64,000 nt of DNA, from positions 46,766 through 110,765 of the forward strand of contig CASFQO010000008.1 of NCBI GenBank assembly GCA_949297145.1. Direction: 5' to 3'. Under the pieces are notes generated by a model. It was not told where the DNA came from. It did not search any database and was given only the letters and a program-made list of their open reading frames with translations. Below are positions 940-23,870 of the stretch, in pieces (position 1 is the stretch's first letter; each line of letters begins with the position of its first letter). The translations under genes and the position numbers were made by a program. The stretch is from an uncultured Alphaproteobacteria bacterium (GTDB lineage Bacteria > Pseudomonadota > Alphaproteobacteria > RF32 > CAG-239).

Positions 940-2298
940 ATGAAGAAAAAAACAGCAATCATCTGCCTAATAATAGGACTAGCAACAGGAAATGCAAATC
1001 CTGCCAATGCCTTAATTTTGGATGCTCCGACATTAGCTGCCAAAATCAGTGAGTGGGTAGGAAAAATAACCGATGCCACAACAAAAGTGACCCAGCAAGT
1101 ATCACAAGTAAAACAAATGACATCACAGGGCTTTAACAAAGAAGAACTCTTCAGCATAGCAGAAGAATACGCCTCAAGTTATGGAAAAGATTTACTCAAA
1201 ACCAAAATGAAAAAAATAGTGGATGGCACAAAAAAGAAAAACCGAGACAAGATGGAAACAGAAAAAGAAGCCTATGTAGAAGCTCAGAATGCTTACTATG
1301 AAGAAAAAATTGGGATAATGGATGATAGTATAAAAGAAACCGAGAATGCACGCAATGAAGCGCAAACCGCTCGTACACAAAAGCAAGCAGAGGTTGATCA
1401 AAAAAAAAGCTACTATGAAAGCGTCAAAGGAAATCTGTCGAAAGAACCAAAAGCATATGATGAGTATATGAAGGCACAGATGGAATATGACGAATTAGAT
1501 AAGACTTGCCAAGAATTTGATGTTCTGCTGGAAAATTTAGAAATGCAGAGAAGCGTATTGCAAGAAGAAAAAGCCAAAGTAGGGACTTCTGATGATCCTC
1601 AGTATGCATTATATGAAAAACGTCTGGAAGAAATGGATAAAGAAATAGAAGAGGCCGATGGAGAAGGAGGAAAAGAAGAAATTGTTAATAAATCAAGTGG
1701 TAATGAGGCTGAATGGGACGATGAAAACGTTGTGAAAGATTTCTCACCTACCGAGAAAGATTACACAGATTTTCTTGAGAGATATTTCTACAATCCAGAG
1801 GATTTGTCTGCAGCTGGAGGAGATGCGCGAATTGAACACCAAACAAAAATAGATGCTGTCACCAGAGAAAGAAGATTTTTGCTTGTAAACAGTGCGGCAC
1901 ACTTACTACAGGTATCAGCAACATTAAGAAGGGAGATTCCAGTACGTAGTGAAATTATAGATGAGATGTTTCAAAATACTCCTAAATCGACAGGAGAATT
2001 AGAGGCAATATCATCATATTCAGCCACAAGAATAGAAAATATGAAAGCATTGCTTATGTATGCGAAACTTCAAAGTGCAAGATTACAGTATATGTCTGCT
2101 AAACAATTGCTTAGCATAGACGCCATAAAAGTACCAAATGGAAATTATTCTGATTTTAATTTAGAAAAATACATCTTGACCAAAGAAGATGTGGATAAGG
2201 CAATAGAAGAAGCCAACACAGCAAACAGCGGTGTAACTTCTGTTGAAGATAATTATGAAGTAAATGCGGGAGACTACCAATGGTTAACAAACAACTAA
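940..2298 (+). CDS. Secreted coiled-coil protein (signal peptide MKKKTAIICLIIGLATGNANPANA), 452 aa; candidate VirB5/TrbJ-like component; contains an A9 homopolymer at 1400-1408
   Basis: Signal peptide; long E/K-rich heptad-like segments; 9-nt gap from previous gene; 19-nt overlap with next gene. Confidence 0.5.
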   Translation: MKKKTAIICLIIGLATGNANPANALILDAPTLAAKISEWVGKITDATTKVTQQVSQVKQMTSQGFNKEELFSIAEEYASSYGKDLLKTKMKKIVDGTKKKNRDKMETEKEAYVEAQNAYYEEKIGIMDDSIKETENARNEAQTARTQKQAEVDQKKSYYESVKGNLSKEPKAYDEYMKAQMEYDELDKTCQEFDVLLENLEMQRSVLQEEKAKVGTSDDPQYALYEKRLEEMDKEIEEADGEGGKEEIVNKSSGNEAEWDDENVVKDFSPTEKDYTDFLERYFYNPEDLSAAGGDARIEHQTKIDAVTRERRFLLVNSAAHLLQVSATLRREIPVRSEIIDEMFQNTPKSTGELEAISSYSATRIENMKALLMYAKLQSARLQYMSAKQLLSIDAIKVPNGNYSDFNLEKYILTKEDVDKAIEEANTANSGVTSVEDNYEVNAGDYQWLTNN

Positions 2299-7704: not shown

Positions 7705-8463
7705 ATGGTTAATTTAATAAATCAAAAAATACTTCGGATAACAGATAAAGGAAAACCCAAAGAAGCTCCGGCATTTATTACGGAAGATGTCATAGAAGTA
7801 AAACGTGCAAAATTGATTTATTACAAATGGATAAGTAGATTAATGGCGCTACTTGCAACCATCTCTTTGCTATATGGTGTTTGTGCAACATTATCAATAT
7901 TAAAGTTAGCGCCGGAAATAGTAATAGATCCGCAATTATTTGTACGCCTATCCGATTCTGAGTCTTTAGTCAAAAGGGAGAGAGTTGACCGTTGGATGGA
8001 GTCTCGTGAAAAGATGATGGTGAATTTCATGAAACAATATGTAGAGCTCCGAAACACCTACATCAAAGATGAAAAAGAAATGAATAACCGCTGGTTATGG
8101 GGAGGTCTTGTGTCATACCTATCAACCTATCCGGTATATAAAGAATTTGAAAAGGTCTTTCCTAAATTAAAAGAAGAAATGCAAGAAAAGGAAGCAAGTC
8201 GTTCTGTAGAAATTCTCTCAGTTGAGCGAACGGGCGGTGAAAACAGTAATACATGGAAAATAGAGTTTAAGACGTATGATTTTACTTTTAAGCAAAATAG
8301 ATTAAGCCGACGAGCAAGCGTGAAGCCGATTATAGAAGAGAGATTCTGGACTGCGAACATTCGTGGATATGTCGATCCAAACAGAAGAACGGCCTACAGA
8401 CGCCTTTTAAATCCATTAGGATTTGTCGTATACAGTTATTTTCAAAGTGAAATTGAGACTTAA
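7705..8463 (+). CDS. virB8: VirB8-like T4SS inner-membrane protein, paralog 1 (bitopic: N-terminal cytoplasmic tail, one TM, periplasmic NTF2-like domain)
   Basis: Single TM WISRLMALLATISLLYGVCATLSIL; size 252 aa; conserved C-terminal NPLGF-V-Y motif shared with the second copy. Confidence 0.7.
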   Translation: MVNLINQKILRITDKGKPKEAPAFITEDVIEVKRAKLIYYKWISRLMALLATISLLYGVCATLSILKLAPEIVIDPQLFVRLSDSESLVKRERVDRWMESREKMMVNFMKQYVELRNTYIKDEKEMNNRWLWGGLVSYLSTYPVYKEFEKVFPKLKEEMQEKEASRSVEILSVERTGGENSNTWKIEFKTYDFTFKQNRLSRRASVKPIIEERFWTANIRGYVDPNRRTAYRRLLNPLGFVVYSYFQSEIET

Positions 8464-8606: not shown

Positions 8607-8798
8607 ATGTATTATAAAGCTTTAGTAATCGGTTTCGCTGTTCTAATATTGGCTGCATGTAATTTAGTCGGCAGCTATTATGAACCAGAACCTGTTGGTA
8701 TAGGTAAAGATGTATACGAATTGAAACTATCACCATGTGCTTGCATAGAGGTGGAATTACCAAAAACATTGCCGGATTGGTTCAAGGCAATCAGCTAA
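8607..8798 (+). CDS. virB7: Small (63 aa) lipoprotein, VirB7-like candidate, sandwiched between two virB8 paralogs
   Basis: Lipobox L-A-A-C at residues 15-18 (LILAACNL); AGAGGG RBS; size and position match rvhB7 of Rickettsiales. Confidence 0.5.
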   Translation: MYYKALVIGFAVLILAACNLVGSYYEPEPVGIGKDVYELKLSPCACIEVELPKTLPDWFKAIS

Positions 8799-8809
8799 GG
8801 TAAAAATCT

Positions 8810-9568
8810 ATGGTAGAGCAGCTATCCTCGGAAAATACAAAAAAACTTTTATTGGAAGGGCAAACTGGAGAAAAGCCTCGTCCTAAAATGGCGCGTCCTC
8901 ACAAAAGAGGTTCAGCGGATGTTATTGTCGAAAACGCAACAGAAAAAAGATATTTATGGACTGCCAGAGCTTTTGCTATTATCTTTGCGGTGAGCTTGTG
9001 TTGTAACTTAATCTTAACATACGTTGTATTTGCTATAATGCCACTCTATCGTATAGAGCCGTATTTGTTTAGTTTTGCAGAGAAAAAAGATCAAATCTAT
9101 ACAATCCATCCGGTTAAAAATATTTATGAGTATAAATACTTAACGGAAATCTTTATAAGAGAATATGTTTTATTACGTAATACCTTTGTTAACGACGTTA
9201 ATGAGATGGAACAACGTTGGGGGACAGGAAGCACTATTCAAGAAATGTCATCCCCAGGGGTTTATAGTAAATTTAAAGAGGAATTTGCTGATAAGGCAAT
9301 TGATTTAATTAGAAATCACAATATTACACGCAACATTAAAATCGCCTCAGTAACAGAAGTTGGTGGTAAAAATGGTGAAATGTGGTGGCAGGTAGAGTTT
9401 AGAGTTGAAGATATGATGCCCGAATTTGAAACACCGAGGTTAAGTGTGTGGTTGGCATCTGTCAAAATACAATATAGGGCCAAAAGGGTAACTTTTGGAG
9501 AAAGATTAAAAAATCCATTAGGGTTTACGGTACTTGATTATAAACAAGTAGAGAGAAAAACAAACTGA
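8810..9568 (+). CDS. virB8: VirB8-like T4SS inner-membrane protein, paralog 2
   Basis: TM AFAIIFAVSLCCNLILTYVVFAI; C-terminal motif RLKNPLGFTVLDY parallel to paralog 1. Confidence 0.7.
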   Translation: MVEQLSSENTKKLLLEGQTGEKPRPKMARPHKRGSADVIVENATEKRYLWTARAFAIIFAVSLCCNLILTYVVFAIMPLYRIEPYLFSFAEKKDQIYTIHPVKNIYEYKYLTEIFIREYVLLRNTFVNDVNEMEQRWGTGSTIQEMSSPGVYSKFKEEFADKAIDLIRNHNITRNIKIASVTEVGGKNGEMWWQVEFRVEDMMPEFETPRLSVWLASVKIQYRAKRVTFGERLKNPLGFTVLDYKQVERKTN

Positions 9569-9587: not shown

Positions 9588-11546
9588 ATGATGAAAAAAG
9601 TGAACATATTATCTGTAATGTTGGTATATTTGGGGATGCTAATGGCATCAGCTCAAGCTCAAGTGACAAAAGATAATCTGGATCAAAATGCAGATCAGAG
9701 TCAAGGAAACTATGCCGCAACCAATTTAAATTATTTAGGAGGTGTAGGGTCCTTAGGTATGATGCAAAGTGCATGGAAAGATCCTTTACAGCATATGGGA
9801 GAAGGACAAACTCGTCCAGGTTATACAAAATATTATTGGACACCAGAACTTGTCTTGCCTGTCAGAGTTAGAGAAGGTATGTATACCCTAATAAATTTTC
9901 CAAACTGGGAAGTGATTGAAAATGTCTACATAGGTGATGGACAATCATTTAATGCGGAAATACAAGGTCCATCAAGTTTGATGGTTTATCCTGATTCTTC
10001 GCAGTTTGTTGGTGTAGATACTAATATGATTGTCTTTGGTCGTTCTGGAAATAAATATGTTTTTTATGTTCAAAGTGAAACAGTTAATACAGATAGAATT
10101 ACAAATGCTATAATAGATATTGAAGTTGTGAAAAAAAGACAAAATGTTTCTGGTGCGTCAGCTATGGGGATAGGCACCGGAGGCGGTAATGGGCATATCA
10201 ATGCAAATACTTATGGGCAGAATGGAAGTAGTGTAGATGCAACATTTACAAGAGATTTACAAAAGGAAGACTGGATTGAAAAAATTCCGGTAGACCCGAC
10301 ACAGTTTCGTTTTGATATAGAAGTATATGTTCCCAATCCCGATGACATTGTTATAGCTCCAGAACGTGTTTGGAGAGATAATATTTTCACGTATATTGAT
10401 TTAGGAGATAAAGCGCTGACAGCAAACCAACGACCGATTGTAACTTTAATCGTAGAACGTTCAGAAACACCCGTTGGTTTTAGAACAGCAGGCCCAAATA
10501 ATCGTCTCATTATTGTAGAAGGCATGGGAGATATGGTTTTGCGTAGCGGAAAAAGAATTGTTTGCTTAAAATTAAGGCGCGCAGATTCGGATGGTTTGGA
10601 AAATACAGTTTATGCGAAGACAAATGAGTGGGATTTACAAGCTCAGCGCTACCAAAATCAGTCTTCAAGTACAGGAGAACCTGCTGAAAATTATGAAGAT
10701 GTTTATGGAAAAGAAACATCAGCTGATAATAAAAAAGATTCTTTCTTTGGTATTAATTCATTCTTTGGACCATCAGAAACTGCAACATCCTCGAAAGCAG
10801 AAACAGACAGTGGTATGAGCTATGAAGATATGATCAGTGGAAAACAATCTACGACGCCGCAAAACGAGGTTAAGTCCGAACCAAAAGAAAATAACCAAAA
10901 CAAGGTATCAGAGCCGTCAACTACAGATAAAGAAGCTTTGATAAATTCGATTCCAAAAGCGAAAACATATGTGGCTACACCGAATTCGGCTCCAAGTACG
11001 CCAGAATTGACAGGCCAATATGATGTAAATGCAAATGGAGCAGAATTAGTAACGCCTCAGTATGGTAATAAAAAAGAGGATACCATAACATACCAAAAGG
11101 ATGAACAACAAAGCTTGCAAAATTCTAACGTTGCTCCAAAACTTGGTAATTCTAGCAATAACTCTAGTCCTGTTTTGATTACACCAAAGGATGAAAATTT
11201 GGCCAAACAGAACTCTTTGGTTTCTGCGGAAACAGAAGCTCTCTTGAAAGAATTCAGGGACGGAAAGGTTTTTGAAAATACAGATGAAAGTAATATTTCT
11301 ATAGAATTAGGAACAGATAAAGACGTAAATAATCTGGAAAAATTATGGAATGATATTTCTAAAAATTACTCAGCAACATTGGGTAGATATCAACCATTTT
11401 ATTCTGTAGATACACCGGCAGACGGTCAAGGAAAAGAGGTCTTTCACCTGCGAGTAGGACCTGTAAAATCTCTGGAAGAAGGAGATAATATTTGCAGCCA
11501 ATTAGGGCGTAATGGAATATTTTGTAGTGTGGTTAGAATACAATGA
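9588..11546 (+). CDS. virB9: VirB9-like T4SS outer-membrane core protein, extended by a ~250-aa S/T/N/Q-rich low-complexity linker and a C-terminal SPOR-like peptidoglycan-binding domain
   Basis: Signal peptide MMKKVNILSVMLVYLGMLMASAQA; VirB9/TrbG/CagX-like beta-rich core approx aa 75-330 (…RFDIEVYVPNPDDIVIAPERVW…IVCLKLR); C-terminus …FHLRVGPVKSLEEGDNICSQLGRNGIFCSVVRI matches the SPOR consensus. Confidence 0.75.
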   Translation: MMKKVNILSVMLVYLGMLMASAQAQVTKDNLDQNADQSQGNYAATNLNYLGGVGSLGMMQSAWKDPLQHMGEGQTRPGYTKYYWTPELVLPVRVREGMYTLINFPNWEVIENVYIGDGQSFNAEIQGPSSLMVYPDSSQFVGVDTNMIVFGRSGNKYVFYVQSETVNTDRITNAIIDIEVVKKRQNVSGASAMGIGTGGGNGHINANTYGQNGSSVDATFTRDLQKEDWIEKIPVDPTQFRFDIEVYVPNPDDIVIAPERVWRDNIFTYIDLGDKALTANQRPIVTLIVERSETPVGFRTAGPNNRLIIVEGMGDMVLRSGKRIVCLKLRRADSDGLENTVYAKTNEWDLQAQRYQNQSSSTGEPAENYEDVYGKETSADNKKDSFFGINSFFGPSETATSSKAETDSGMSYEDMISGKQSTTPQNEVKSEPKENNQNKVSEPSTTDKEALINSIPKAKTYVATPNSAPSTPELTGQYDVNANGAELVTPQYGNKKEDTITYQKDEQQSLQNSNVAPKLGNSSNNSSPVLITPKDENLAKQNSLVSAETEALLKEFRDGKVFENTDESNISIELGTDKDVNNLEKLWNDISKNYSATLGRYQPFYSVDTPADGQGKEVFHLRVGPVKSLEEGDNICSQLGRNGIFCSVVRIQ

Positions 11547-14500
11547 GCGAGAATACTCGGTTTGAAGAATATGAGAGAAAAACCCGTAAGATAATTTTCA
11601 TCATAGGAATTATCGCGTTCTTTTTCTTTCTGTTTGGACTATTAGTAATATCATCAGAGACTGAGGTCTACAATCCGGAAGAAGCTACCCCTGACTTTGT
11701 AGAAAATCAAAACATACTACCTGAAATAACAACAGATACAGGGCCTATATTTGTTGACACAGAAGCCACAACAGGAGAAAGTAAAAATAAACCCATAAAA
11801 GTTACACCTGCACAGATAAATATGAATAAATTTATTTTAGGTGTAGATACGCAAAACCAAAGTGTTCTAACAATTGGAACAGATGGTAGTGAAAGTATTC
11901 ATATAGAACGTGTTGAATTGGTGGAAGAAACTGAAGACGGATTTGAATTTCGTGATAAATGCAGAAACAGAGATTTGCGAGGAGATGAAACATGTAACGT
12001 CTTGATCACCTGGGTTCCACATCTTCCGGGTAACGTGCAGAATAATTTTAAAATAATATGGTACGAGACGCGCTTGGATAAATCAAGTGCAAAATCTGAA
12101 GAGGTGAGCATTAAAGGGAGTGCAGTTTATCCTGAGGACAACCAACAAAATTGTCCACCAGGAAGCGGTTGCGCAATTGGCGAAGGAGAAAGTACTGGTG
12201 CACATCGATTAGCAATAGGACCTAATGGAGAAATAATAGGATATATAGACGAAGCAGGAAATGTACACGATAATGAGGGAAATATTATCGGTCGTGTCAA
12301 TGAAGACGGATTGATTGTCGATTCTGACGGCAATATTATTGGTGTAGCCCAAAATATGAAGTTAGCTTATGATAAAGATGGTAATATAATCGGATATGTA
12401 AAAACGGACGGAACAGTTGTTGATCTGCAAGGTGAAGTAATCGGAAAAGCATTACCAGATGGTACGATTGTTAACAGCAAAGGAGAAATCATCGGCAAAG
12501 CTGTTGAAGCAGGATTTGTATATGATAAAAATGGCAAAATTATAGGTCGCGTGCTACCGGATGGAACAGTTGTCGATATAAATGACCCCAAGAAAATCAT
12601 CGGTCGACTAAATGAAAATGGTGAGGTTGTAGACGAAAACGGCAATGTAATAGGCAAAGTTACCTCAGCTGGGAACATCGTTGTAGATGAAAATGGTAAT
12701 GTATTAGGTGTTGTTATGCCAGATAATAGCGTTGTAGACCAAGATGGCAATATTGTTGGCTATGTTGACGAAAATGGCAATGTTTACAAACTTGCAAAGG
12801 AAAAAATCGGCACAAATGGAGAAAGTCGGAAAATCGTGTATGACAAAGATGGTAAAGCCATCGGTTATATCGATGAAAATGGCAAAGTTGTTAAATTTGC
12901 AAAAGATAGCAATAAACCGGAAATAATTGGAAAAGTTGGGGCTAGCCGCCGGTTAGCCTATGATAAGAATGGCAATGTAATCGGCTATGTAGATAAAGAT
13001 GGTACAGTAAAGGATTTTAAGGGAAATACAATAGGCAAAGTCGATAAAGACGGAAATATAATAGATAAAAACGGCAATAAGATAGGCAAGGCCGGGGCTT
13101 TTGGTAAGTTGGCATTGGATAAAAACGGAAAAGTCATAGGGTATATTGATGACCAAGGCCGCGTATTTGACCATAATGGAAAGCATATCGGCAATGTCGA
13201 TAAAAATGGTAACATTGTAAAATTAGCTGAAAATGGCAATAAAGGGGAAGTAATAGGAAAATCTGGAGAAAGTCGCAGATTGGCCTTTGATAAAAATGGT
13301 AACGTTATCGGATACGTAGATAAAGATGGCACGGTAAAAGATTTTAAGGGAAACACAATAGGCAAAGTCGATAAAGATGGAAATATAATAGATAAAAACG
13401 GTAATAAGATAGGAAAAGTGAGCTCATATGGTAGATTAGCACTAGATGAAAATGGAAAAGTCATAGGGTATATTGATGACCAAGGCCGTGTATTTGACCA
13501 TAACGGGAAACAGATCGGTAACGTTGATAAAGATGGAAATATAATAGATAAAAATGGTAATAAAATTGGGAAATCAGGAGAAAGTCGAGAGTTGGCTTAT
13601 GATAAGAATGGCAATGTAATCGGCTATGTAGATAAAGATGGTACAGTAAAAGATTTTAAGGGAAATACAATAGGCAAAGTCGATAAAGACGGAAATATAA
13701 TAGATAAAAACGGCAATAAGATAGGCAAGGCTGGGGCTTTTGGTAAGTTGGCATTGGATAAAAACGGAAAAGTCATAGGGTATATTGATGACCAAGGCCG
13801 CGTATTTGACCATAATGGAAAGCATATCGGCAATGTCGATAAAAATGGTAATATCATTAGCACGCAACAGAAGAATGTAGCTGGAGAAAAAAAGAGGATA
13901 GCCTTAGGGAAAGACGGTAAGCCAATAGGGTATATAGATGATGATGGAAATGTTATAGATTTTGATGGAAATATCATAGGAAAGGTTAATGACAAAGGGG
14001 AAATTATAGGCAAGAATGGGCAAAAAATTGGTACTGCAGGAAATTATGAAACAGTTGCATATGATAAAAATGGCAAAGTAATAGGTTTCGTCGATGATAA
14101 AGGTCGTGTTGTTGGTAAAAATGGCAAATTACTTGGTTATGTTGACGACAAAGGGCAAATTATAGGGACAACAGGCGAGATAATTGGTAAAGTAGGAACA
14201 TCAAGAGAAATAGCCTATGATAACAATGGAAAATTTATCGGCTATGTAGACCAAGATGGCTCTGTGAAAGGCTGTGGTGGAGCAGTAATTGGTAAAAAAG
14301 ATAGTTCTGGAAATGTTATAGATAAAAATGGTAAAATTATCGGCAAAGTAGGTGGAATAAAAGAGTTAGCCTTTAATAATGAAGGAATTTTTATTGGCTA
14401 TATAGATGAAAAAAAACGAGTCATAGATTGTGAAGGCACAGCAATAGGTGTTGTGGATAAAAATGGTAATATTATAGCATCAAGTGGAGAAACGTTAGGA

Positions 14501-17500
14501 ACCGCAGGAACGTTTAAGCGCTTAGCCTATGATAAAAATGGAAAAGTCATTGGTTACGTAACGCCAGATGGTACAGTAAAAGATTTTAAGGGTAACTTGA
14601 TTGGACGTATGACTGAAGATGGAACGATTCTTGATAAAAATGGTCGTGTGATTGGTAAAGCTGGAGATTACAAACAGGTAGCGACAGACAAAAATGGTAA
14701 TGTTATCGGCTATGTGGATGAAAATGGTCGTGTTATAGATGAAAATGGCAAACTGATAGGCTTTATAGACAATGAAGGTAATGTCATTAAAGCAGGAACA
14801 AAGGTAATAGGTAGAACTTGTATTAAAAGAAAAATTATAAAAAACAAAAAGGGAAATATAATCGGATATCTGGATAAAAATAACATTGTAAAAAATTTTA
14901 GCAATAAAGTGCTTGGCACAAATAAAAATGGAGACATTCTAGATAATAAGGAATTGCTAATAGGTACGGTAAGCGAACTCCAAAATGTTGTACAAAAGGA
15001 AGCTGGAAATATCATAGGGTATTTAGATGCAAAAAACTATGTTAGAGGCGATGAAAATAAAATAATAGGAATTGTAGATGTAAAGGGAGACGTTTTAGCT
15101 GCAAAAGAAAATATAATTGGAAAATTAGACACAGATAGAAAAACCCTGAAAGACAATGGTAATAATATTATAGGCTACATGAAAGAGAATAATTTTGCTT
15201 TCAGTACTGATAATAAGCTAATGGGCTATGTAACGGAAGATAATGAAGTGAAAGCCGTTGGAGAAGTGATCTGTACTGCATGCAAAAGTGTCAAGTTGGC
15301 ATATGATGAAAATGGTAATATATTAGGATATATCGATGAAAATGGCAATGTAATAGATGAAAATGGTAAGATTGTCGGCAAGGTAGATGAAAACGGCAAT
15401 GTGATAAATGAAAACGGAAAAATTATCGGAAAAGTCGGAGATGCCCAAAATTTGGCCTATGATAAAGATGGAAAACTTATAGGATTCGTAGATAAGGACG
15501 GAAAAGTAAAAGATTTTAAGGGAAATGTAATAGGATATGTCGATGAAAATGGAAATATTCTTGAGAATACGAATGAAATAATAGGCAGTGTTGGAAAAAA
15601 TGGTAAATTAGCCTATGATAAAAATGGAAAAGTCATTGGTTACGTCGATAAAGATGGTAATGTCCGTGACTTTAAAGGCAATTTAATCGGAAAAGCTACA
15701 AAAGATGGTAAAATAATAGATCAGTATGGCCGTGAAATAGGAAAAGTTGGTGATACTAAAACATTAGCACTGGATAAAAATGGAAATGTAATAGGCTATG
15801 TCGGTGAAGATGGAAAGGTCTACGGTGAAAAAGGAGATTTGATAGGATTTCTGGATAATGACGGTAATGTTGTTGGTTTAACCGATGAAGTACTAGGCAA
15901 AGCCTCTACAAATCGTCAATTAGCACTTGATAAAAATGGAAATGTAATAGGATACATAGATGAAGACGGTACTGTTCGTGATTTTGAAGGAAAGCTGCTA
16001 GGGTATTTAGGCGAAGATGGAAGTATAAACGATATAAATGGCAATATTATTGGAAAAGCGGGCGATTATGCAAAAGTTGTTCTCGATAAGAATGGTAACA
16101 TAATAGGTTACACAGATGAACAAGGAAAAGTAATTGGAAATAATGGAAAAGTCATTGGTTTTGTAGGAGAAGATGGCAATGTTTATGGAAGCAGTGGTGA
16201 AGTTATTGGCCGACTAGCCGAAAAAGGGGAGGGAGATCTCAAGGTAATCAGTAGAAAATCAGTAATGGATGAAAAAGGTAATATAATTGGTTACATAGAT
16301 GAGAATGGTCTGGCTCGAGATTTTGATGGCAACATTCTGGGAACTCTTCAAGAAGATGGAAGCATTAAAGATAGCAAAGGAAATATAATAGGTCGAGCAG
16401 GAGATAATATTGATTTAACAGTAGATGGAAACGGAAAAATTGTTGGTCGAGTAGGTGATTATTCAAATTTAGCAATTGATGATGAAGGGAACGTTATTGG
16501 TTATATTGGTAACGATGGAAAAGTTTATGATGCAAATGGAATTGTCATTGGCTATATAGATGAAAACGGTAATGTCATTAGTACTAGGGGAATAAGAATT
16601 GGAACAGTTGTTAAAAAGGATATGATAGCTATATCACCAGCAGGATACAGTCTGGGGATTATTAACAATCGAGGTGAAGTTACTAACAATAAAGAGGAAG
16701 TTATCGGCAAAATATTACCAAATTCATTAATAAAAGCAACTGAAGGCGATCAAATAATCGGTAAAACAGTTATCGGAGGAATGGCTATAGGCTGGGGCTG
16801 CCAACATTACGGATATGTAGACAGAGATGCAAGAGTGAAAAAAAATGGAAAAGACACCGGATATAAAATGCTATTTGACAGAACAATTGTAGACAAAGAT
16901 GGCAATTATGTTGGAGATATAGCAAAAGTTGGAGCTGTGCGCGATGAAAAGTGTAACATTATTGGAAAAGCTGAATATGACGGTTATGTAAGAAACGATG
17001 CCGGAGATTATGTCGGTTGTGTAAACCCAGATGGAGGTGTGCTTGATCAAGATGGAAAACTTATAGGAAAGGTCTTTGAACCAGGATATGCACTATATTA
17101 TAGCGGAGAAATGATGGGAATAGTCAATCAAAATGGTTCAATAACATCCGGAACACAAGCTATTGGATGTACGAATTTTGATGGAGAAGTATTAAATAAA
17201 GATGGATTTGTCATTGGACAGGTAATGGATAAAACTCAAGCGTTTGATATTGAAGGGAATTTTATTGATAACCTATCAACATTTAAGTATGATAATACGG
17301 AAATCTTGCCTAATACGAAGATATTATTTAATAAATTCATAGTTAATCCGAAATTGGAAATAAAAGGAATTATATTGCCAGAGAGAAATGTTGTCATAAA
17401 TTCGGATGGAGACGTTATAGGACATCTGTTTGCAGATGGGTATATTTATAATCAAAAGGGAATTGCTGTTGATAAAATAGCATATGAAGGAAGAGCTTTT

Positions 17501-18463
17501 TATTCCCAAAAAGCTGGAAAGATTATGGAGCCTGGAAAAGTAGTTGACTTTAACGGTAACTATATAGGATTGGCAAATGCATCAGGTAAAGTAATAGACG
17601 TACTGGGTACAGAATTAGGCCATATAGATGGAAAAGGACGAATGTTTGATAAAGCAGGAGAATATAAAGGAGGACTGGTTAAAACAGGTGTTGGCATAGG
17701 TTATGATGGATCATATCTCGGATATGTAAGTAAAAGCGGCAAAGTTATAGATGTTGACGGAAATGTGAGTGGAAACGTCAGCTCTGAGGGACATATTTTA
17801 GATGCGAATAAACAAATTGTCGGAGAAGTTATAGCAGAAGACCTGACAATAGATATTCAGGGTAAAGTAAGAGGATATGTAAATGCTTTGGGCGATATTA
17901 TAGATGAAGATGGCAACATCATAACAACTATATTGCCAGGAGGCGCATCAAACAAAAATTATAATGTAATAAAAAGAGGGGTTGTGCTAACTTATTCAGG
18001 AAATGTTTTAGGACAAGTTGTTGCTGATGGAACAGTAATTTCGACAAACAATACTAAGATTGGTCACATATTAAATTCAGGACAAGCTGTTAATGATAAG
18101 GGGGTATTAATAGGAGAAATTGCAGAAGGCGACATCGTAATTGATGAAAAAGATCAAGTTGTAGGCTTCATAAATGCAGAAGGAAAAGTACTGGATAAAA
18201 ATAAGACGGTAATAGGAAAAACCATATCCTCAAATTTAATTGTAGATAACAATGGAAAAATATTGGGATATAGTTATAAAATAGGTGCTAATATACTAGG
18301 AAATGACGGAAAGTTTTTGGGAAGGCTGTCCTCAGATGGGACGATATTCAGCCTGACAAATGGAAAAATTGGATATTTAAAGAGCAACGGCTCATATGTA
18401 AATATTCGAAATCAAGTTTCCGGATATGTATTAGATGAAGTAGCGCAAAACCGGAGGAACTGA
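11543..18463 (+). CDS. Giant (2306 aa) membrane-anchored repeat protein. It has an N-terminal VirB10-like topology (short cytoplasmic tail, one TM, then a periplasmic region). The rest of the protein is an array of >200 copies of a ~10-residue D-x-(D/N)-G-x-(V/I)-I-G-x-V module (about 20-aa double units).
   Basis: TM IIFIIGIIAFFFFLFGLLVISS at aa 17-38; ATGA overlap with virB9 stop; repeat array from about nt 12218 to the end; near-identical DNA-level tandem repeats. Confidence 0.8.
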   Translation: MSENTRFEEYERKTRKIIFIIGIIAFFFFLFGLLVISSETEVYNPEEATPDFVENQNILPEITTDTGPIFVDTEATTGESKNKPIKVTPAQINMNKFILGVDTQNQSVLTIGTDGSESIHIERVELVEETEDGFEFRDKCRNRDLRGDETCNVLITWVPHLPGNVQNNFKIIWYETRLDKSSAKSEEVSIKGSAVYPEDNQQNCPPGSGCAIGEGESTGAHRLAIGPNGEIIGYIDEAGNVHDNEGNIIGRVNEDGLIVDSDGNIIGVAQNMKLAYDKDGNIIGYVKTDGTVVDLQGEVIGKALPDGTIVNSKGEIIGKAVEAGFVYDKNGKIIGRVLPDGTVVDINDPKKIIGRLNENGEVVDENGNVIGKVTSAGNIVVDENGNVLGVVMPDNSVVDQDGNIVGYVDENGNVYKLAKEKIGTNGESRKIVYDKDGKAIGYIDENGKVVKFAKDSNKPEIIGKVGASRRLAYDKNGNVIGYVDKDGTVKDFKGNTIGKVDKDGNIIDKNGNKIGKAGAFGKLALDKNGKVIGYIDDQGRVFDHNGKHIGNVDKNGNIVKLAENGNKGEVIGKSGESRRLAFDKNGNVIGYVDKDGTVKDFKGNTIGKVDKDGNIIDKNGNKIGKVSSYGRLALDENGKVIGYIDDQGRVFDHNGKQIGNVDKDGNIIDKNGNKIGKSGESRELAYDKNGNVIGYVDKDGTVKDFKGNTIGKVDKDGNIIDKNGNKIGKAGAFGKLALDKNGKVIGYIDDQGRVFDHNGKHIGNVDKNGNIISTQQKNVAGEKKRIALGKDGKPIGYIDDDGNVIDFDGNIIGKVNDKGEIIGKNGQKIGTAGNYETVAYDKNGKVIGFVDDKGRVVGKNGKLLGYVDDKGQIIGTTGEIIGKVGTSREIAYDNNGKFIGYVDQDGSVKGCGGAVIGKKDSSGNVIDKNGKIIGKVGGIKELAFNNEGIFIGYIDEKKRVIDCEGTAIGVVDKNGNIIASSGETLGTAGTFKRLAYDKNGKVIGYVTPDGTVKDFKGNLIGRMTEDGTILDKNGRVIGKAGDYKQVATDKNGNVIGYVDENGRVIDENGKLIGFIDNEGNVIKAGTKVIGRTCIKRKIIKNKKGNIIGYLDKNNIVKNFSNKVLGTNKNGDILDNKELLIGTVSELQNVVQKEAGNIIGYLDAKNYVRGDENKIIGIVDVKGDVLAAKENIIGKLDTDRKTLKDNGNNIIGYMKENNFAFSTDNKLMGYVTEDNEVKAVGEVICTACKSVKLAYDENGNILGYIDENGNVIDENGKIVGKVDENGNVINENGKIIGKVGDAQNLAYDKDGKLIGFVDKDGKVKDFKGNVIGYVDENGNILENTNEIIGSVGKNGKLAYDKNGKVIGYVDKDGNVRDFKGNLIGKATKDGKIIDQYGREIGKVGDTKTLALDKNGNVIGYVGEDGKVYGEKGDLIGFLDNDGNVVGLTDEVLGKASTNRQLALDKNGNVIGYIDEDGTVRDFEGKLLGYLGEDGSINDINGNIIGKAGDYAKVVLDKNGNIIGYTDEQGKVIGNNGKVIGFVGEDGNVYGSSGEVIGRLAEKGEGDLKVISRKSVMDEKGNIIGYIDENGLARDFDGNILGTLQEDGSIKDSKGNIIGRAGDNIDLTVDGNGKIVGRVGDYSNLAIDDEGNVIGYIGNDGKVYDANGIVIGYIDENGNVISTRGIRIGTVVKKDMIAISPAGYSLGIINNRGEVTNNKEEVIGKILPNSLIKATEGDQIIGKTVIGGMAIGWGCQHYGYVDRDARVKKNGKDTGYKMLFDRTIVDKDGNYVGDIAKVGAVRDEKCNIIGKAEYDGYVRNDAGDYVGCVNPDGGVLDQDGKLIGKVFEPGYALYYSGEMMGIVNQNGSITSGTQAIGCTNFDGEVLNKDGFVIGQVMDKTQAFDIEGNFIDNLSTFKYDNTEILPNTKILFNKFIVNPKLEIKGIILPERNVVINSDGDVIGHLFADGYIYNQKGIAVDKIAYEGRAFYSQKAGKIMEPGKVVDFNGNYIGLANASGKVIDVLGTELGHIDGKGRMFDKAGEYKGGLVKTGVGIGYDGSYLGYVSKSGKVIDVDGNVSGNVSSEGHILDANKQIVGEVIAEDLTIDIQGKVRGYVNALGDIIDEDGNIITTILPGGASNKNYNVIKRGVVLTYSGNVLGQVVADGTVISTNNTKIGHILNSGQAVNDKGVLIGEIAEGDIVIDEKDQVVGFINAEGKVLDKNKTVIGKTISSNLIVDNNGKILGYSYKIGANILGNDGKFLGRLSSDGTIFSLTNGKIGYLKSNGSYVNIRNQVSGYVLDEVAQNRRN

Positions 18464-18464
18464 G

Positions 18465-21400
18465 TTGCGAAAAAAAATATTAAATTTTATCCATATTCTT
18501 GAACTGGTGGTAGTCTGTATTGCCTTCAGTGTGAAGGCTATGGCTGCAGATATTAGTGCACTCAATTTTAATGGAGATTTAATAGGAAAAGTAATTCCTG
18601 ACGGTTCCGTAATAAATAGTGATAATGAGCTTATTGGGTATATGACTGCAGATGGGTTTATTTTTGATAATGATAATAATTTAATTGGAGGCATTGTACC
18701 GCAGGGTATAGCTATTTCATACAACAATAATATTTTAGGAAAAATCAACAATGATGGATCAGTTACGTCGCTAAACGATAGTCTAATTGGAAAGGTCTTA
18801 CCAAATGGCTTAGTCGTTAATGATAATTATGATATTTTAGGAGCCGCCGTTTCACCAAATTTAGTGTATAATGATGGTGGACAAGTTGTTGGACGAGTAT
18901 CAGGCGATGGTAAGTTTTATAATTTATCTGGAGAAAATACCGGATTTGTAACTGCAACAGGATTCGTCTATTCATCTAATGATAACGGAACAGAAAAAAA
19001 AATTAGCCTTATAGGAAAATTAATTACATCAAAGATGGTAATATCGTCAGGTGGAAAATATTTAGGCAGCATAGCTCCGGATGGAAAAGTACTAGATTTA
19101 AGGAAAAATATCATAGGGAATATTCATGCCAATGGTTTTGTATATAACAAAGAAGGGCAGGCAATAGGTCATGTTGTTGATAACGGGTATGCGTTTAATA
19201 ACAACGGACAATACATAGGGGTCGTAAGCTATAACGGTGAGGTTATAAATAAAGGAACAGTAGTTGCCCATGCCATAAATGGTAACAGAGTCATAAATAA
19301 AGAAGGAAATACAATTGGCTTTACAGTCAATATGGCTGCTACAGCAAATACATTAGATGGCAAGTATCTGGGGCGTATTACGGCAGAAGGAAAAATACTT
19401 GATAAAAGAAATATTATAGGAAGCATAGGTGCCTCTGGAAAAGTAGTTAATGAACAAGGTGCTGTTATCGGTATGGTCAATCCGGTAGGTCCTGTATTTG
19501 ATTATTTAGGAAATTTACGAGCAAATGCCGCCATAGGAGGTAAAATTGTTTCATTAGAAGGAATAGAACAGGGAACAGTTCGTCAAAATGAAGCAATAGA
19601 TAATAATGGAAACATTATTGGTAAAACGATAGATAATAATTTATGCTTTAACAGTAATAATGAATTTTTAGGAATAAGCGGTATAGGAACGTATCTAAAG
19701 GCAAATGGGCAGACATATAAAATCTCGCCTTACGGGTATGTCTTTAATGAAAATGGAGAATTAAGCGGTATCAATATTAAGCAAGGTGGTGTATACACAG
19801 AAGATGGAGCAACACTATCATATACATCAAATGAAGGAAAAACCGAAAATACTTCATTAAATGAAATAGCTAAATTTACAGGAGCCGGAATTTTTCTTGA
19901 TAAAAATAATAAGCTATTAGGAAAGATGATAGAAAACAAGTATATCACGAATTTTGAAGGCGAAATGCAAGGTGTCATCAATGCAGGCAATTTGGTTGTA
20001 AATAATAAAAATAAGATTTTTGCAAAAATATTACCAAATAATAATGTTGTTGGCATATCAGAGCGTATTGCCCAAAATTATGGAAGAGCCGGAACTGCAC
20101 CGATTAGCATAAGTATAAATGGGGATTACCTTGGTGCAAACAGTGTGACAGGGCAAATAACAAAAGGCTCCGAAATTGTAGGGAAAATAAGCTCAGATGG
20201 TTACGCTATAGATAATATGGGGGCATTATACGGAAAAACATTAAATATGGGAGCCGTAATCTCGCCAGAATGTAAAGTACTAGGAGTAGTCTCAGATAAG
20301 GGCGAAGCAAGAACATCTAAAGGAGCATATCTGGGGATGATACTAGCCAATAGGCAAGTTGTAGATGAGACAGAAAATGTGATAGGCTATGTTGTTGAAT
20401 CCCAACCGATAAACGGTAAAAATGGAGAAAGTATCGGTGTGGCTAATACATCTGGTAATGTTCTCAATTATAATAATCAAAATTTGGGATGTTTAGACAA
20501 TACCGGTAAAGTAAAAAATTCTCAGCAAGAAATAATTGGACAGGTGATTCCGTATATGTCTATTATGGGATATGACAATAAAATTATCGGATATACGAAT
20601 TTTTATGGAAATGTCATAGATAATTCGGGAATACAAATAGCAACTATAGATTTAGATGAAAGCGTATTATCTAAAACAGGAGAAAATATTGGTGTTCCGT
20701 TTCAATATACAGTAGCTTTTGATGCAAATAACATTTATTTAGGGCGAGTTAAGCCTGATGGAAATGTTGTGTCAGATGGTGGAGAAATTTTAGGTACAGT
20801 CTTATACACAGGAGAAGTAAAAACAACAAAAGGCGAAAATGGTTATGCCCTATATGATTTATATGTTTATGATAATGATGGAAAGACAATAGGCTATATA
20901 GCCAAGAATGGCCGCGTTTACAGTATTATGGGTGAATTAAAAGGTGCTATCTCCCAAGGATTTGTCTTAGATAAAAAACAAAATTTAATAGGTAGAGGAT
21001 TGAGAGATTATAATATAAGAAACAAAGATAATCAAATTATTGGATATTTGAAATTAGATGGAAGCGTTGTTGATATTAAGAATATTGAGATCGGAAAAAT
21101 TGATGAAAAAGGAAATGTCATAACCCTCTCGGGTCAAAACATTGCACAGGCTGGAAAGTTGCAATATTATCACCGTCCAGCTGAACCAATGACAGAAGAA
21201 AAGGTTTCGCAACAAGATACAAAAGAAACTAAACAGAATGAAAATATCGATACAATAAGAGATACAAAAAATACAGAAGAAGCAGAAGAAACAGAAGAAA
21301 TAGAAGAAGCAGAAAATCTAGAGGGTACAAAACGAGAACCCCAGGAAGATGTTGAAGCTTTATCTCCGGAGGAAGCCGCAGCAGCGGAAGTCAAAGACAA

Positions 21401-22820
21401 ATATCGAGTTATAGGCATTGCTGTAACACCAGGTGGACGCTATATTGGAGATGTATACAGCAATAATCAAGTAATAGATGAATCAGGAACTGTTATAGGT
21501 AGCACAAATGCTAATGGTGAGATTTTAGATAAGGAAGGTAACAAAGTAGGGACTTTTGAAAAAAACAAAGAAACCTCCAATCAAGGAATAAAAACAAAAT
21601 GGTGGGAACAAGTCGCGACCGGAGAAACAATTAGCCCCTACAGTAGCGGCAATGAAATAACTAATGTTGGCCCTGGAGGCGGTATTGGCCCTGGAGGAAG
21701 ATATAATCCAAGGCGTGCAGCAATATTATCCCAATTGCAAGATGAAAGACGGAGAACCATGGTCGCCGCGAAAATTGAGCCGGGATACGATGCTGCATCC
21801 TATACAGGTTGGCAAGATGACTGGGGAATTAATCGTTCCGTATCGACATTAAGGGTTAATATGGATAATATGATTACGGGAGATAAACCAATTCCGGCTG
21901 TTTTAGCAAGGTCCTTAATATCTCTTGGTTCTGCTCCGGTAACAGCAATTGTTGAAAGAAATATATATGGTGATTCAGGGCGTAACGTTATTATTCCTGC
22001 CGGTAGCAGAATTATAGGAGGTTTACAAACAACAGACGCAGAATCAAGATTTGACAGTACGAGTGGCGGTGTCAAATTAGAAATATCATGGGAAAGAATT
22101 ATACGTCCGGATGGAATAGCATTCTTGCTATCGGCTGGGAGGACACAAACAGGTGATGCACAAGGTCGCGGTGGTGGTGCGTTAGGTTATGTGGATGAGC
22201 AATTAGTAAAAAAATACACATTGCCGATTGTTGGTACAATGGTAACATCAGCCATAACATACATGATGGCAGTGGATGAAGAAAGCACGGGAGAAGTAGA
22301 AACCTCTAAACAGCAAGCTGCATCAGATGCACGTCAACAATTTATGGAAAAGATGGATGAAATTTTGCAAGAAATTATAGATAGTAAATCACAGATAGAG
22401 CCTGTTACCTATGTTCCGGCTGGCACAAGGGTTATCATTTATCCAATGCAAGATTTGTGGCTAAGAAGTACAAAAGATATTCAAAAAGGAATAATAACGA
22501 ATGTTCCAGGTGGCGGAGAAGGCGGACTTGTAAATGAAACGTTCTACGATGGAGGTGGAACAACCAGCACATCAACAGTTCAGAGTAACAACTCAAAGAA
22601 TAGCCAAAAGGTGATTTTGGGCAATCAGGCACAAACAAATAACACCAATAATAATGGTGGTGGCGGTACACCTCTTATGGAAGATACTTCTCAAAACAAC
22701 ACGCAGCAGCAACCTCATAGAAACATAGGAGCAATACCACCTCCAGCAGCTGATGGAACCATAACAGAAGCTCCAGAAAGCGAAGAGGATTTATCTGGAG
22801 AGGTGGAATTAATATACTAA
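18465..22820 (+). CDS. virB10: Giant (1451 aa) VirB10/TrbI-family protein: Sec signal peptide, ~870 aa of the same D-x-D/N-G hairpin repeats, an acidic E-rich linker, a VirB10 C-terminal beta-barrel domain (approx nt 21735-22575), and a G/N/T/Q-rich tail
   Basis: TTG start 6 nt after a GGAGGA RBS; h-region ILNFIHILELVVVCIAFSV with VKA-MAA cleavage motif; C-terminal …IPAGSRIIGGLQ…ISWERIIRPDGIAF…ALGYVDEQL…VPAGTRVIIYP… matches VirB10/TrbI CTD. Confidence 0.8.
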   Translation: MRKKILNFIHILELVVVCIAFSVKAMAADISALNFNGDLIGKVIPDGSVINSDNELIGYMTADGFIFDNDNNLIGGIVPQGIAISYNNNILGKINNDGSVTSLNDSLIGKVLPNGLVVNDNYDILGAAVSPNLVYNDGGQVVGRVSGDGKFYNLSGENTGFVTATGFVYSSNDNGTEKKISLIGKLITSKMVISSGGKYLGSIAPDGKVLDLRKNIIGNIHANGFVYNKEGQAIGHVVDNGYAFNNNGQYIGVVSYNGEVINKGTVVAHAINGNRVINKEGNTIGFTVNMAATANTLDGKYLGRITAEGKILDKRNIIGSIGASGKVVNEQGAVIGMVNPVGPVFDYLGNLRANAAIGGKIVSLEGIEQGTVRQNEAIDNNGNIIGKTIDNNLCFNSNNEFLGISGIGTYLKANGQTYKISPYGYVFNENGELSGINIKQGGVYTEDGATLSYTSNEGKTENTSLNEIAKFTGAGIFLDKNNKLLGKMIENKYITNFEGEMQGVINAGNLVVNNKNKIFAKILPNNNVVGISERIAQNYGRAGTAPISISINGDYLGANSVTGQITKGSEIVGKISSDGYAIDNMGALYGKTLNMGAVISPECKVLGVVSDKGEARTSKGAYLGMILANRQVVDETENVIGYVVESQPINGKNGESIGVANTSGNVLNYNNQNLGCLDNTGKVKNSQQEIIGQVIPYMSIMGYDNKIIGYTNFYGNVIDNSGIQIATIDLDESVLSKTGENIGVPFQYTVAFDANNIYLGRVKPDGNVVSDGGEILGTVLYTGEVKTTKGENGYALYDLYVYDNDGKTIGYIAKNGRVYSIMGELKGAISQGFVLDKKQNLIGRGLRDYNIRNKDNQIIGYLKLDGSVVDIKNIEIGKIDEKGNVITLSGQNIAQAGKLQYYHRPAEPMTEEKVSQQDTKETKQNENIDTIRDTKNTEEAEETEEIEEAENLEGTKREPQEDVEALSPEEAAAAEVKDKYRVIGIAVTPGGRYIGDVYSNNQVIDESGTVIGSTNANGEILDKEGNKVGTFEKNKETSNQGIKTKWWEQVATGETISPYSSGNEITNVGPGGGIGPGGRYNPRRAAILSQLQDERRRTMVAAKIEPGYDAASYTGWQDDWGINRSVSTLRVNMDNMITGDKPIPAVLARSLISLGSAPVTAIVERNIYGDSGRNVIIPAGSRIIGGLQTTDAESRFDSTSGGVKLEISWERIIRPDGIAFLLSAGRTQTGDAQGRGGGALGYVDEQLVKKYTLPIVGTMVTSAITYMMAVDEESTGEVETSKQQAASDARQQFMEKMDEILQEIIDSKSQIEPVTYVPAGTRVIIYPMQDLWLRSTKDIQKGIITNVPGGGEGGLVNETFYDGGGTTSTSTVQSNNSKNSQKVILGNQAQTNNTNNNGGGGTPLMEDTSQNNTQQQPHRNIGAIPPPAADGTITEAPESEEDLSGEVELIY

Positions 22821-22889: not shown

Positions 22890-23870
22890 ATGGGAAAGCT
22901 TGAGGATGAAGTTCTTTGCTCTGTATTAAGACCATTATCATATTGGTATGATCAGGAGAATATAGAAGAAGTCGCTATAAATCATCCTGGCGATATATGG
23001 CTGCGCTTGCGCGGCAAAAGAGCCTTTCCATGGGTGAACTATAAGGATCCTAAATTAACCAGAGAATATTTGACAAATTTACTGCATATAATAGCAAATT
23101 TAAATGATCAAGAGTTTGATCCGATAAATGGTTCACCGGTTGTTTACGCCAGAATTCCTGGAGGACATCGTTTTACAGGTATCGCCGGAAAAAATATTGA
23201 GTATGATTTAGATGATGCCGCGACTGGAGGAATAGCGATAGCGATACGTTTGCATTCGGATGATGTAGCATTTGGCTTTGGAGATTATGGCTTGGAGCAG
23301 GGGAAAAAATTAAAAGAGATTAATCCCTTAAAGCATATCAAAGATCCTGATGATGCGTATGAAAGGTTGCTGCTGGCATTACGCCGTGGAGACCATATCC
23401 TAGTGAGTGGTGGTACAGGAACTGGTAAAACGACATTATTAAACAACTTGCTAAAACTTCTGGATATACATAAAAGAGTAATAACGGTGGAGGATACGCG
23501 AGAACTTAATGTGCCGCAACCAAATCATGTACATATTGTTTTATCGCGTACAGAGCAGACGAATACGATGGATTATTCCAAAGTAATTGACTTGATTGTA
23601 CGTTTTACTCCAGATGCAATCATCGGCGGAGAAATTTCTACAAGTAATGCGGGAGCAATTTGGGAATTGATGGGATCAGGACACGATAACTGCCTAGCCA
23701 CAATACACGCAGAGAGCTCGACCGCCGCCTATGAAGCATTTGTAAAACGTATTATGAGAACACAGCCGAACATAGATGTTGAAAAAACGATAGAAGAGAT
23801 GCGTCGCAAACTTCACGTTGTGCAAATCGTAAGAGACGGCAATATTCGTGGAATTACAGAAATAACTTAA
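22890..23870 (+). CDS. virB11: VirB11 T4SS traffic ATPase
   Basis: Walker A VSGGTGTGKTT; 326 aa; VirB11/CpaF-like N- and C-terminal domains. Confidence 0.88.
   Translation: MGKLEDEVLCSVLRPLSYWYDQENIEEVAINHPGDIWLRLRGKRAFPWVNYKDPKLTREYLTNLLHIIANLNDQEFDPINGSPVVYARIPGGHRFTGIAGKNIEYDLDDAATGGIAIAIRLHSDDVAFGFGDYGLEQGKKLKEINPLKHIKDPDDAYERLLLALRRGDHILVSGGTGTGKTTLLNNLLKLLDIHKRVITVEDTRELNVPQPNHVHIVLSRTEQTNTMDYSKVIDLIVRFTPDAIIGGEISTSNAGAIWELMGSGHDNCLATIHAESSTAAYEAFVKRIMRTQPNIDVEKTIEEMRRKLHVVQIVRDGNIRGITEIT

Follow-up and report, generated by a model that had tools for sequence, protein, structure and literature searches.

The window analyzed here is a stretch of 64,000 nucleotides (nt) from an uncultured alphaproteobacterium (GenBank assembly GCA_949297145.1, contig CASFQO010000008.1, positions 46,766 to 110,765), and all coordinates below refer to this window. 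Its first 24 kb form a single plus-strand operon that carries components of a type IV secretion system (T4SS) in the order virB8, a probable VirB7-like open reading frame (ORF), virB8, virB9, two large adjacent genes, and finally virB11 at the operon's end. VirB10 is regarded as the only T4SS subunit to reach from the inner to the outer membrane, where its C-terminal domain, together with VirB9 and VirB7, makes up the outer-membrane core complex and occupies its center (PMC9371333). At the other end, its N-terminal part passes through the inner membrane next to VirB6 and touches VirB4 and VirB3 (PMC12624023). In the window, these two ends are encoded by the two large genes. We consider it likely that the two genes together represent one VirB10 that was anciently enlarged and then divided once into two coupled cistrons. 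An earlier note, made from the sequence of the window, had proposed just such a split, with the membrane anchor on the upstream protein and the C-terminal domain on a second, Sec-exported protein. The positions of the transmembrane (TM) helix and of the VirB10 domain, observed across 74 species, agree with that proposal.

The upstream gene (11543-18463; plus strand, like every operon feature described here) encodes a protein of 2306 amino acids (aa), which we call VirB10-N on the basis of its composition, repeat structure and N-terminal homology. Its start overlaps the stop codon of virB9 (ATGA). The protein begins with MSENTRFEEYERKTRK, followed by the strongly hydrophobic segment IIFIIGIIAFFFFLFGLLVISS, whose Kyte-Doolittle maximum over 19 residues is 3.18. 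Residues 1-16 form a basic N-terminus, or cytoplasmic tail, and residues 17-38 (nt 11591-11656) form a TM helix of 22 residues. An immunoglobulin-like (Ig-like) periplasmic domain follows at about residues 85-200. From residue 223 to about 1700, the protein consists of some 28 regular units of 52 aa, after which the hairpin repeats become degenerate. The non-repeat region (residues 1-222) matches giant single-chain VirB10 proteins of related bacteria (P0071, E value 8e-18; P0091, E value 2e-14), which are described below as fused forms. The C-terminus, GYVLDEVAQNRRN, carries a motif that is kept in 74/74 related loci, and the last 80 residues are more conserved (0.60-0.63) than the interior (about 0.45).

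The downstream gene is an ORF of 1451 aa that starts with TTG (18465-22820). Its protein opens with (M)RKKILNFIHILELVVVCIAFSVKAMA, after which comes the predicted signal peptidase cut and then the sequence ADISALNFNG. Comparison with orthologs predicts a Sec signal peptide at residues 1-27 (18465-18545), with the cleavage site at A25-M26-A27 / A28. Degenerate beta-hairpin repeats extend from residue 28 to about residue 900 (18546-21164), as recognized by the Pfam profiles Bflower_2 and Bflower and by BLASTP. An acidic linker (about residues 905-985; 21177-21419) is apparent in the translation and is poorly conserved (0.12-0.19). The VirB10/TrbI C-terminal domain occupies residues 1137-1333 (21873-22463). 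The protein ends with a low-complexity tail rich in G, N, T and Q (about residues 1345-1451; 22497-22820, including the stop codon), which was delimited from the translation and from alignment to relatives. Conservation is highest in the VirB10 domain (0.55-0.72) and at residues 27-146 (0.56-0.66), and is lower in the repeat interior (0.31-0.45). As an observation on the tail, a motif of the form PPP..DG and an acidic C-terminus ending in -L-x-F/Y are kept across split, fused and some compact relatives.

Assignment of the downstream protein to the VirB10 family draws on profiles, structure prediction and gene context. The Pfam profile TrbI (PF03743) matches with an E value of 1.9e-27 and 96.8 bits (cutoff 35), and a sequence search of the PDB returned ComB10 (2bhv, 1.4e-16), TrwE, CagY and Xanthomonas VirB10. 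The NCBIfam models score below their cutoffs, with 84.6 bits versus 220 for T4SS_VirB10 (NF038091) and 111.6 versus 300 for T4SS_ComB10 (NF038092). An AlphaFold2 model of the domain consists of a beta core and two long helices, with a mean predicted local distance difference test (pLDDT) of 52 and core values of 70-80. The helices, predicted with moderate confidence at model residues 210-237 and 245-272, correspond to two putative antenna helices at about residues 1246-1273 and 1281-1308 of the protein (nt 22200-22388), whereas the tail is disordered in the model (pLDDT <40). When this model was compared with the PDB using Foldseek, the best 25 matches were all VirB10 homologs (CagY, TrwE, ComB10, VirB10, TraF, TraB and DotG). 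The domain is the only VirB10 domain in the whole 64-kb window, and its gene resides in a virB operon next to virB9 and virB11. Only one hallmark of the family is missing from the chain that bears the domain: the cytoplasmic tail and TM helix are found instead on the upstream protein. These sequence matches indicate that the downstream protein is a divergent member of the VirB10 family, equivalent to neither the NCBIfam VirB10 nor the NCBIfam ComB10.

Most of these features had been read from the letters alone in the earlier note, and every element that it listed is present. It had named the TTG start preceded by GGAGGA, both of which are present (18465 and 18453-18458), as well as an acidic linker and a G/N/T/Q-rich tail, which are visible in the translation. 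It had also placed the VirB10 domain at about 21735-22575, a range that encloses the TrbI match, and had suggested comparing the C-terminus with VirB10 profiles, a comparison that gave the Pfam, PDB and Foldseek matches above. Its claim that the downstream protein carries about 870 aa of the same repeats as its neighbor holds as well. Bflower_2 matches the downstream protein in seven stretches (E value 5.5e-52, 174.8 bits, cutoff 38) and the upstream protein with 533.2 bits against the same cutoff, and downstream residues 18-907 align to the upstream protein by BLASTP with 27-29% identity (E value 5e-72).

The basic unit of the upstream repeats is a hairpin of 17 aa (51 nt). Three hairpins form a 52-aa unit, and pairs of units create a DNA period of 327 bp. 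The repeats carry a [DNEQ]xxG motif at the hairpin tip, and an AlphaFold2 repeat model consists entirely of short beta-hairpins (pLDDT 79), for which no counterpart was found in the PDB. Both the profile matches and the hairpin model thus support a predicted assignment of the repeats to the beta-flower families (PF21784/PF21785, clan CL0395), with scores far above threshold. The paper that described the beta-flower fold likewise reported no solved relative (Durairaj et al. 2023, PMC10584680). The beta-flowers described there each consist of one small domain with 8-12 strands, and some are lipoproteins (PMC10584680), whereas the hairpins in the window form arrays of hundreds to thousands of residues within a secretion-system subunit.

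Within the upstream gene, some of the tandem repeats of 327 bp are nearly identical (12870-13851). Contigs from the same species differ in this region: contig L001 apparently lacks about 156 nt, equal to one 52-aa unit and in frame, and contigs L002 and L004 show four or five gaps that break the reading frame. These differences reflect either variation in repeat number of the kind known for CagY or the collapse of repeats during short-read assembly.

The junction between the two genes is compact. The Shine-Dalgarno sequence GGAGGA (18453-18458) is embedded in the upstream codons CGG-AGG-AAC and lies 6 nt before the TTG start (18465-18467), and the upstream stop codon TGA (18461-18463) is separated from that start by one spacer base. 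An identical VirB11 protein was found on 23 metagenome contigs, and the six of these that were examined, all from the same species, carry the same separate 1451-aa ORF, which in each begins one base past the end of the upstream gene. The identical downstream protein occurs on 11 contigs from NCBI, ENA and Logan. We also scanned one genome per species, which returned 80 loci, all from metagenome-assembled genomes (MAGs) of uncultured gut or rumen Alphaproteobacteria, whose VirB10 domains show 40-85% identity. Every one of these loci with enough upstream DNA has the two-gene arrangement. Five proteins of 559 aa (P0001-P0005) were considered as short VirB10s and rejected, as they start in the middle of a repeat (MDAGGRVIAVAEKLQYY) and are truncated gene calls.

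At 74 of 74 loci, the upstream protein ends in Y(V/A)LxEVA(Q/K)NRRN followed by a stop codon, and the ribosome-binding site for the downstream gene lies inside the last upstream codons (CGG-AGG-AAY). In clade A, all loci share the junction geometry of the window, with 82 nt from the stop to the first codon of the mature protein. Other properties of the junction vary among the 74 loci. The stop codon is TAA in 37, TGA in 20 and TAG in 17; the downstream start lies 1-10 nt past it; and the downstream frame relative to the upstream gene is +1 in 38, +2 in 22 and in-frame in 14. The variation bears on the idea that a single giant VirB10 chain results from a programmed +1 frameshift or from stop-codon readthrough at 18461-18465. 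Such recoding would fit the window taken by itself, where only one base separates the stop from the downstream ORF, which lies in the +1 frame. However, because frame, stop identity and spacing vary across the 74 loci, a conserved frameshift or readthrough device is ruled out, and the loci have kept a ribosome-binding site, a start codon and a signal peptide instead. Recoding is therefore highly improbable, and comparison of the loci points to termination followed by re-initiation at a coupled cistron.

The same data settle whether the split is real. Near-identical 327-bp repeats, such as those at 12870-13851, are mishandled by short-read assemblers, and a sequencing or assembly error, or a recent pseudogenizing stop, might thus have been suspected. 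However, the junction (18441-18480) is unique sequence far from these repeats, it is identical in independent assemblies and conserved over 74 species, and both ORFs are intact and of full length. The earlier note had looked to relatives for a continuous ORF across 18441-18480, and none exists among the close relatives. The split is neither an error nor the product of a recent stop codon, and the suspicion of an artifact is effectively refuted.

Evidence for export of the downstream protein comes from a comparison of the window with 74 related loci, giving 75 sequences. Position -1 holds a small residue in every one of them (A in 69, S in 5, G in 1), position -3 is occupied by A (47), V (19), T (3), S (3) or L (3), and position -2 is free. 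Conservation starts exactly at +1 with the sequence (A/Q)(D/E)I(S/T)A(I/L)(D/N)FNG(D/E)LIGKVIPDG. The hydrophobic core that precedes it is 12-19 residues long (12-16 in most species) and variable in sequence, with a hydrophobicity of about 2.0-2.4 compared to about 2.9-3.2 for the upstream TM helix (2.37 versus 3.18 in the window). The pattern expected for Sec export and signal peptidase I, with small residues at -3 and -1, is thus present in 75/75 sequences, and the claim of a cleavable Sec signal peptide in the earlier note is supported by a predicted A-x-A-type site in every one of them. We conclude that the downstream N-terminus has the signature of a cleaved Sec signal peptide, from which we infer the cleavage itself.

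An alternative is that the downstream hydrophobic segment is an uncleaved anchor. The downstream protein alone would then be a complete bitopic VirB10, and the upstream protein would be an accessory paralog that arose by partial duplication. The length of the hydrophobic stretch in the window (about 19 residues, Kyte-Doolittle 2.37) is in keeping with such an anchor, and a partial duplication would fit the alignment of both proteins to one and the same repeat zone in the fused forms. Nevertheless, small residues at -1 and -3, a free -2 position and conservation that begins at +1 are unexpected for a permanent anchor, and in most species the core is shorter and far less hydrophobic than the upstream TM helix (about 2.0 versus about 3.0). 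Furthermore, the downstream protein has no conserved cytoplasmic tail, and the N-terminal motif of VirB10 is located on the upstream protein. We therefore regard a signal anchor as improbable and favor two parts of one VirB10, the second of which is exported by Sec.

Relatives in which VirB10 is a single giant chain provide information on how this arrangement might have arisen. These fused forms came from an exhaustive HMMER search that used the VirB10 domain of P0052, a distant relative, as its seed. The search returned 17 cluster representatives, 1,498-2,406 aa in length, in which a single chain combines the N-terminal motif, a TM helix, an Ig-like domain, repeats and a TrbI domain. Their N-terminal motif is SSSEQY(I/V)KKSNR, their tail is of the same kind as that of the split forms, and Pfam recognizes both Bflower and TrbI within a single fused protein. 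A separate search with the N-terminal domain of the upstream protein for fused architectures returned only fragments at contig ends.

The fused giants (P0071, P0091, P0092, P0094, P0097 and P0128, and those of loci L087 and L088) resemble the split pair in N-terminal motif, TM helix, Ig-like domain, type of repeat, VirB10 domain and tail. They also occupy the same operon slot, between virB8-small ORF-virB8-virB9 and virB11. For example, the operon of P0091 (locus L088) reads virB8, a 59-aa ORF, virB8, virB9 with a SPOR domain, a giant of 2266 aa, and virB11. Locus L087 is also of the fused type and has similar synteny, although it is interrupted by runs of N. It was set aside as an example for this reason, and P0071 and L088 were used instead. 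In contrast to the split pair, the fused giants have no internal NRRN-stop, ribosome-binding site, signal peptide junction or EITAIDFNG module. The best alignments to them are collinear, with upstream residues 1-1068 corresponding to fused residues 1-1238 and downstream residues 1-1645 to fused residues 440-2156. The upstream match thus starts at the first fused residue, and the downstream match runs to the fused C-terminus.

A neighbor-joining tree of the VirB10 domain (211 columns, 68 taxa, 200 bootstraps) groups the split forms as monophyletic in 178 of 200 bootstraps (89%) and separates split and fused forms together from the canonical forms in 191 of 200. Only 2 of 200 recover the fused forms by themselves as a clade; they are paraphyletic, with the split clade nested among them. 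The simplest history suggested by these sequences is that a canonical VirB10 became a giant, repeat-expanded VirB10, which then underwent a single ancient fission. Thus, one alternative offered in the earlier note, that both proteins derive from a single ancestral giant gene cut by a stop codon, is partly upheld. The ancestral giant is supported by the fused relatives and the nested position of the split clade, whereas the cut itself appears to be not a recent stop but an old fission that came with a new start and a signal peptide.

Two other types of VirB10 were observed during these searches. A compact VirB10 of 579 aa (P0125) opens with a motif similar to that of the fused forms (SESFVKRSERRML) and a TM helix; it shows an Ig-like match that is weak (E value 0.009) and a VirB10 domain but no repeats, and it may represent the state of this lineage's VirB10 before expansion. 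Several VirB10 homologs of canonical size, about 520-630 aa, from other lineages (P0160, P0180, P0187, P0200 and others) begin with lipoprotein-type signal peptides (LLTACG...) and have no TM helix. VirB10 proteins lacking a TM anchor may thus have more than one origin.

From these comparisons, the following series of events can be proposed. VirB10 would first have grown through the addition of the Ig-like domain and of beta-hairpin repeats amounting to more than 1,000 residues. The enlarged protein would then have been split, once and long ago, into two translationally coupled cistrons, the new one with a built-in ribosome-binding site, its own new start and a signal peptide gained in the process. 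In the present-day machine, the upstream protein retains the ancestral N-terminus (short conserved cytoplasmic tail, TM helix and Ig-like domain). It would stay in the inner membrane, where by analogy to R388 VirB10 it might contact VirB4, VirB3 and VirB6, and would extend about 2,000 residues of repeats into the periplasm. The downstream protein would be made from its own ribosome-binding site and TTG codon, exported by Sec, cut after A-M-A, and would join VirB9 and the VirB7-like lipoprotein in the outer-membrane core complex, supplying the VirB10 domain and its antenna helices. The two halves would finally be re-joined non-covalently in the periplasm.

The likeliest contact between the halves would be end to end, with the conserved C-terminus of the upstream protein meeting the conserved N-terminal module (about 120 aa) of the mature downstream protein. 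We prefer this type of contact because both ends that flank the junction are more conserved than the repeat interiors. Pairing along the repeat arrays, which the earlier note had suggested, is not favored because upstream and downstream lengths show no correlation within clades (rho 0.19 and -0.02), although this is a weak test. Gene structure, domains, conservation and the fused relatives with their place in the tree are direct results, whereas signal peptide cleavage, assembly into a working machine and non-covalent re-joining of the halves are steps that we infer.

The main rival to this model is that the halves do not re-associate. The downstream protein would then be a VirB10 of the outer membrane only, the upstream protein would serve as an independent periplasmic scaffold, spacer or cell-wall-binding array anchored in the inner membrane, and the covalent and functional coupling of the two membranes through VirB10 would have been lost. 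In the standard view, the outer-membrane gate is proposed to receive conformational signals that depend on ATPases by way of VirB10 (Cascales and Christie 2004, as cited in PMC12624023). A flexible repeat tether of 1,000-2,000 residues seems a poor transmitter of force or energy. The uncorrelated lengths of the two proteins within clades also fit this rival, as does the ability of the Legionella core complex to form in the absence of DotG, its VirB10 homolog (PMC9371333). However, the genes are adjacent and coupled with a fixed junction in 74/74 species, the ends that flank the junction are the more conserved parts of both arrays, and the upstream protein retains the conserved cytoplasmic tail of VirB10 and remains inside the virB operon. 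We therefore judge the loss of association to be rather unlikely. We tentatively propose, as a real possibility, that a whole clade of gut Alphaproteobacteria runs a T4SS in which VirB10 is made as one inner-membrane and one outer-membrane protein that re-join non-covalently by way of a conserved docking module, located where their giant beta-hairpin arrays end.

Several points weigh against a single fission followed by re-joining. First, the combined length of the two halves, with a median of 2,653 aa and about 3,530 aa in the subclade of the window, is greater than that of the fused forms, and a simple cut is therefore too simple. Since the summed length exceeds that of the fused forms and both halves align to the same repeat zone, a partial duplication followed by complementary loss appears to be as likely as a simple cut. 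Second, the fission point is not uniquely mapped, because BLAST searches with the 250 aa flanking the junction match many repeat positions of the fused forms; the only consistent signal is that the mature N-terminus of the downstream protein best matches about residues 352-623 of P0091, P0092, P0094 and P0104. Third, the tree is a neighbor-joining tree on 211 columns, and the sister relation of the split clade to P0071 and P0105 has no bootstrap value of its own. Fourth, the hydrophobic core in the window is itself long for a signal peptide and contains glutamate and histidine residues, and an uncleaved anchor is conceivable for the window species alone. Finally, the hosts are uncultured, and cleavage, localization, expression and interaction are all judged from sequence.

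Genes for virB4, virB6, virB2/B3 and virD4 were not found among the scanned ORFs of the 64-kb window, and the remaining secretion-system genes must sit elsewhere in the genome. Secretion-system genes are also scattered in the genomes of Rickettsiales.

Canonical VirB10/TrbI proteins (Agrobacterium tumefaciens VirB10, pKM101 TraF, R388 TrwE and Xanthomonas citri VirB10) share the beta-barrel domain with its two-helix antenna, the gene position between virB9 and virB11, and the presence of an N-terminal tail and one TM helix with the system described here. Whereas the canonical proteins unite the anchor and the outer-membrane domain in one chain of about 380-450 aa with a proline-rich linker, the split pair comprises one polypeptide of 2306 aa and another of 1451 aa, in which predicted beta-hairpin repeats totaling about 2,900 aa separate anchor from domain, and the chain that bears the domain has a putative cleavable signal peptide. 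The nearest analogs in the literature, Helicobacter pylori CagY and Legionella DotG, are VirB10 homologs that are likewise enlarged by repeats N-terminal to the C-terminal domain (PMC9371333). CagY is also among the best structural matches to the VirB10 domain of the window, and differences in repeat number between strains may occur here as they do in CagY. Unlike the split pair, CagY and DotG are single polypeptides, and the CagY repeat modules and DotG pentapeptide repeats differ in kind from beta-flower hairpins.

The Rvh T4SS of Rickettsiales has a duplicated virB8 with a small VirB7-like lipoprotein gene between the copies, followed by virB9, virB10 and virB11, and RvhB10 is a normal single-chain VirB10. 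The order in the window (B8-B7-B8-B9-B10-B11) resembles that of this chromosomal P-type system. Unlike in Rvh, there is no virD4 gene 3' of virB11, and the hosts are gut-lumen MAG lineages that are not known as intracellular, in contrast to Rickettsiales. A literature search, in which journal coverage was partial, found nothing relevant on a split VirB10 or its fission, on fused giants, on DUF3659 or on the secretion system of this clade.

If the proposed arrangement is correct, covalent continuity of VirB10 across the envelope would be dispensable, and the beta-flower arrays would build a previously unseen periplasmic superstructure around the machine. This would surprise secretion-system specialists, and it makes VirB10 continuity testable. 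A stable natural two-piece VirB10, with single-chain giant relatives as built-in controls, allows one to ask whether coupling needs a continuous polypeptide, what the N-terminal tail and TM module does alone, and what purpose the huge repeat arrays serve. Furthermore, the beta-flower/DUF3659 repeat gains a first concrete cellular context, and the findings point to an undescribed, widespread secretion system in uncultured Alphaproteobacteria of the human gut and rumen.

The two virB8 paralogs (7705-8463 and 8810-9568) match Pfam VirB8 (PF04335) with E values of 7.5e-13 and 3.1e-17, respectively. Between them lies an ORF of 63 aa (8607-8798; MYYKALVIGFAVLILAAC...) with the lipobox L-A-A-C (LILAAC), which probably encodes the VirB7-like lipoprotein, and an ORF of 59-65 aa occupies the same position between the virB8 copies at loci L087 and L088. 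The VirB9/CagX homolog (9588-11546) has a signal peptide and matches CagX (4.2e-14), and VirB11 (22890-23870), the ATPase encoded by the last gene of the operon, matches T2SSE (1.8e-26) and the NCBIfam VirB11 model (6.3e-47). The VirB9 homolog also carries a SPOR (peptidoglycan-binding) domain at its C-terminus (residues 578-650, 3.6e-4), an unusual addition to VirB9, and the VirB9 of locus L088 has a weak SPOR match as well. At the head of the operon are three genes for signal-peptide proteins of 232 aa (232-930), 452 aa (940-2298) and 1801 aa (2280-7685), the last of which is rich in cysteine and has coiled-coil-like stretches. None of the three matches a Pfam or NCBIfam family, and they may be lineage-specific components or substrates of the secretion system.

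The operon is followed on its 3' side by engB, yidC, yidD, rnpA, rpmH, gpsA, recF, dnaN and dnaA, and a Pfam search of the rest of the window identified only housekeeping genes. Because engB through dnaA adjoin the operon, the system is chromosomal and lies beside the replication-origin gene cluster. GC skew is very strong across the repeat genes (0.29-0.43 at 12000-20000), compared to about 0.1-0.2 elsewhere in the operon, and probably reflects the Gly/Asp/Lys/Asn-rich codons of the repeats rather than replication strand bias. The cumulative skew flattens near 24 kb, where gene direction changes beside the yidC to dnaA cluster.

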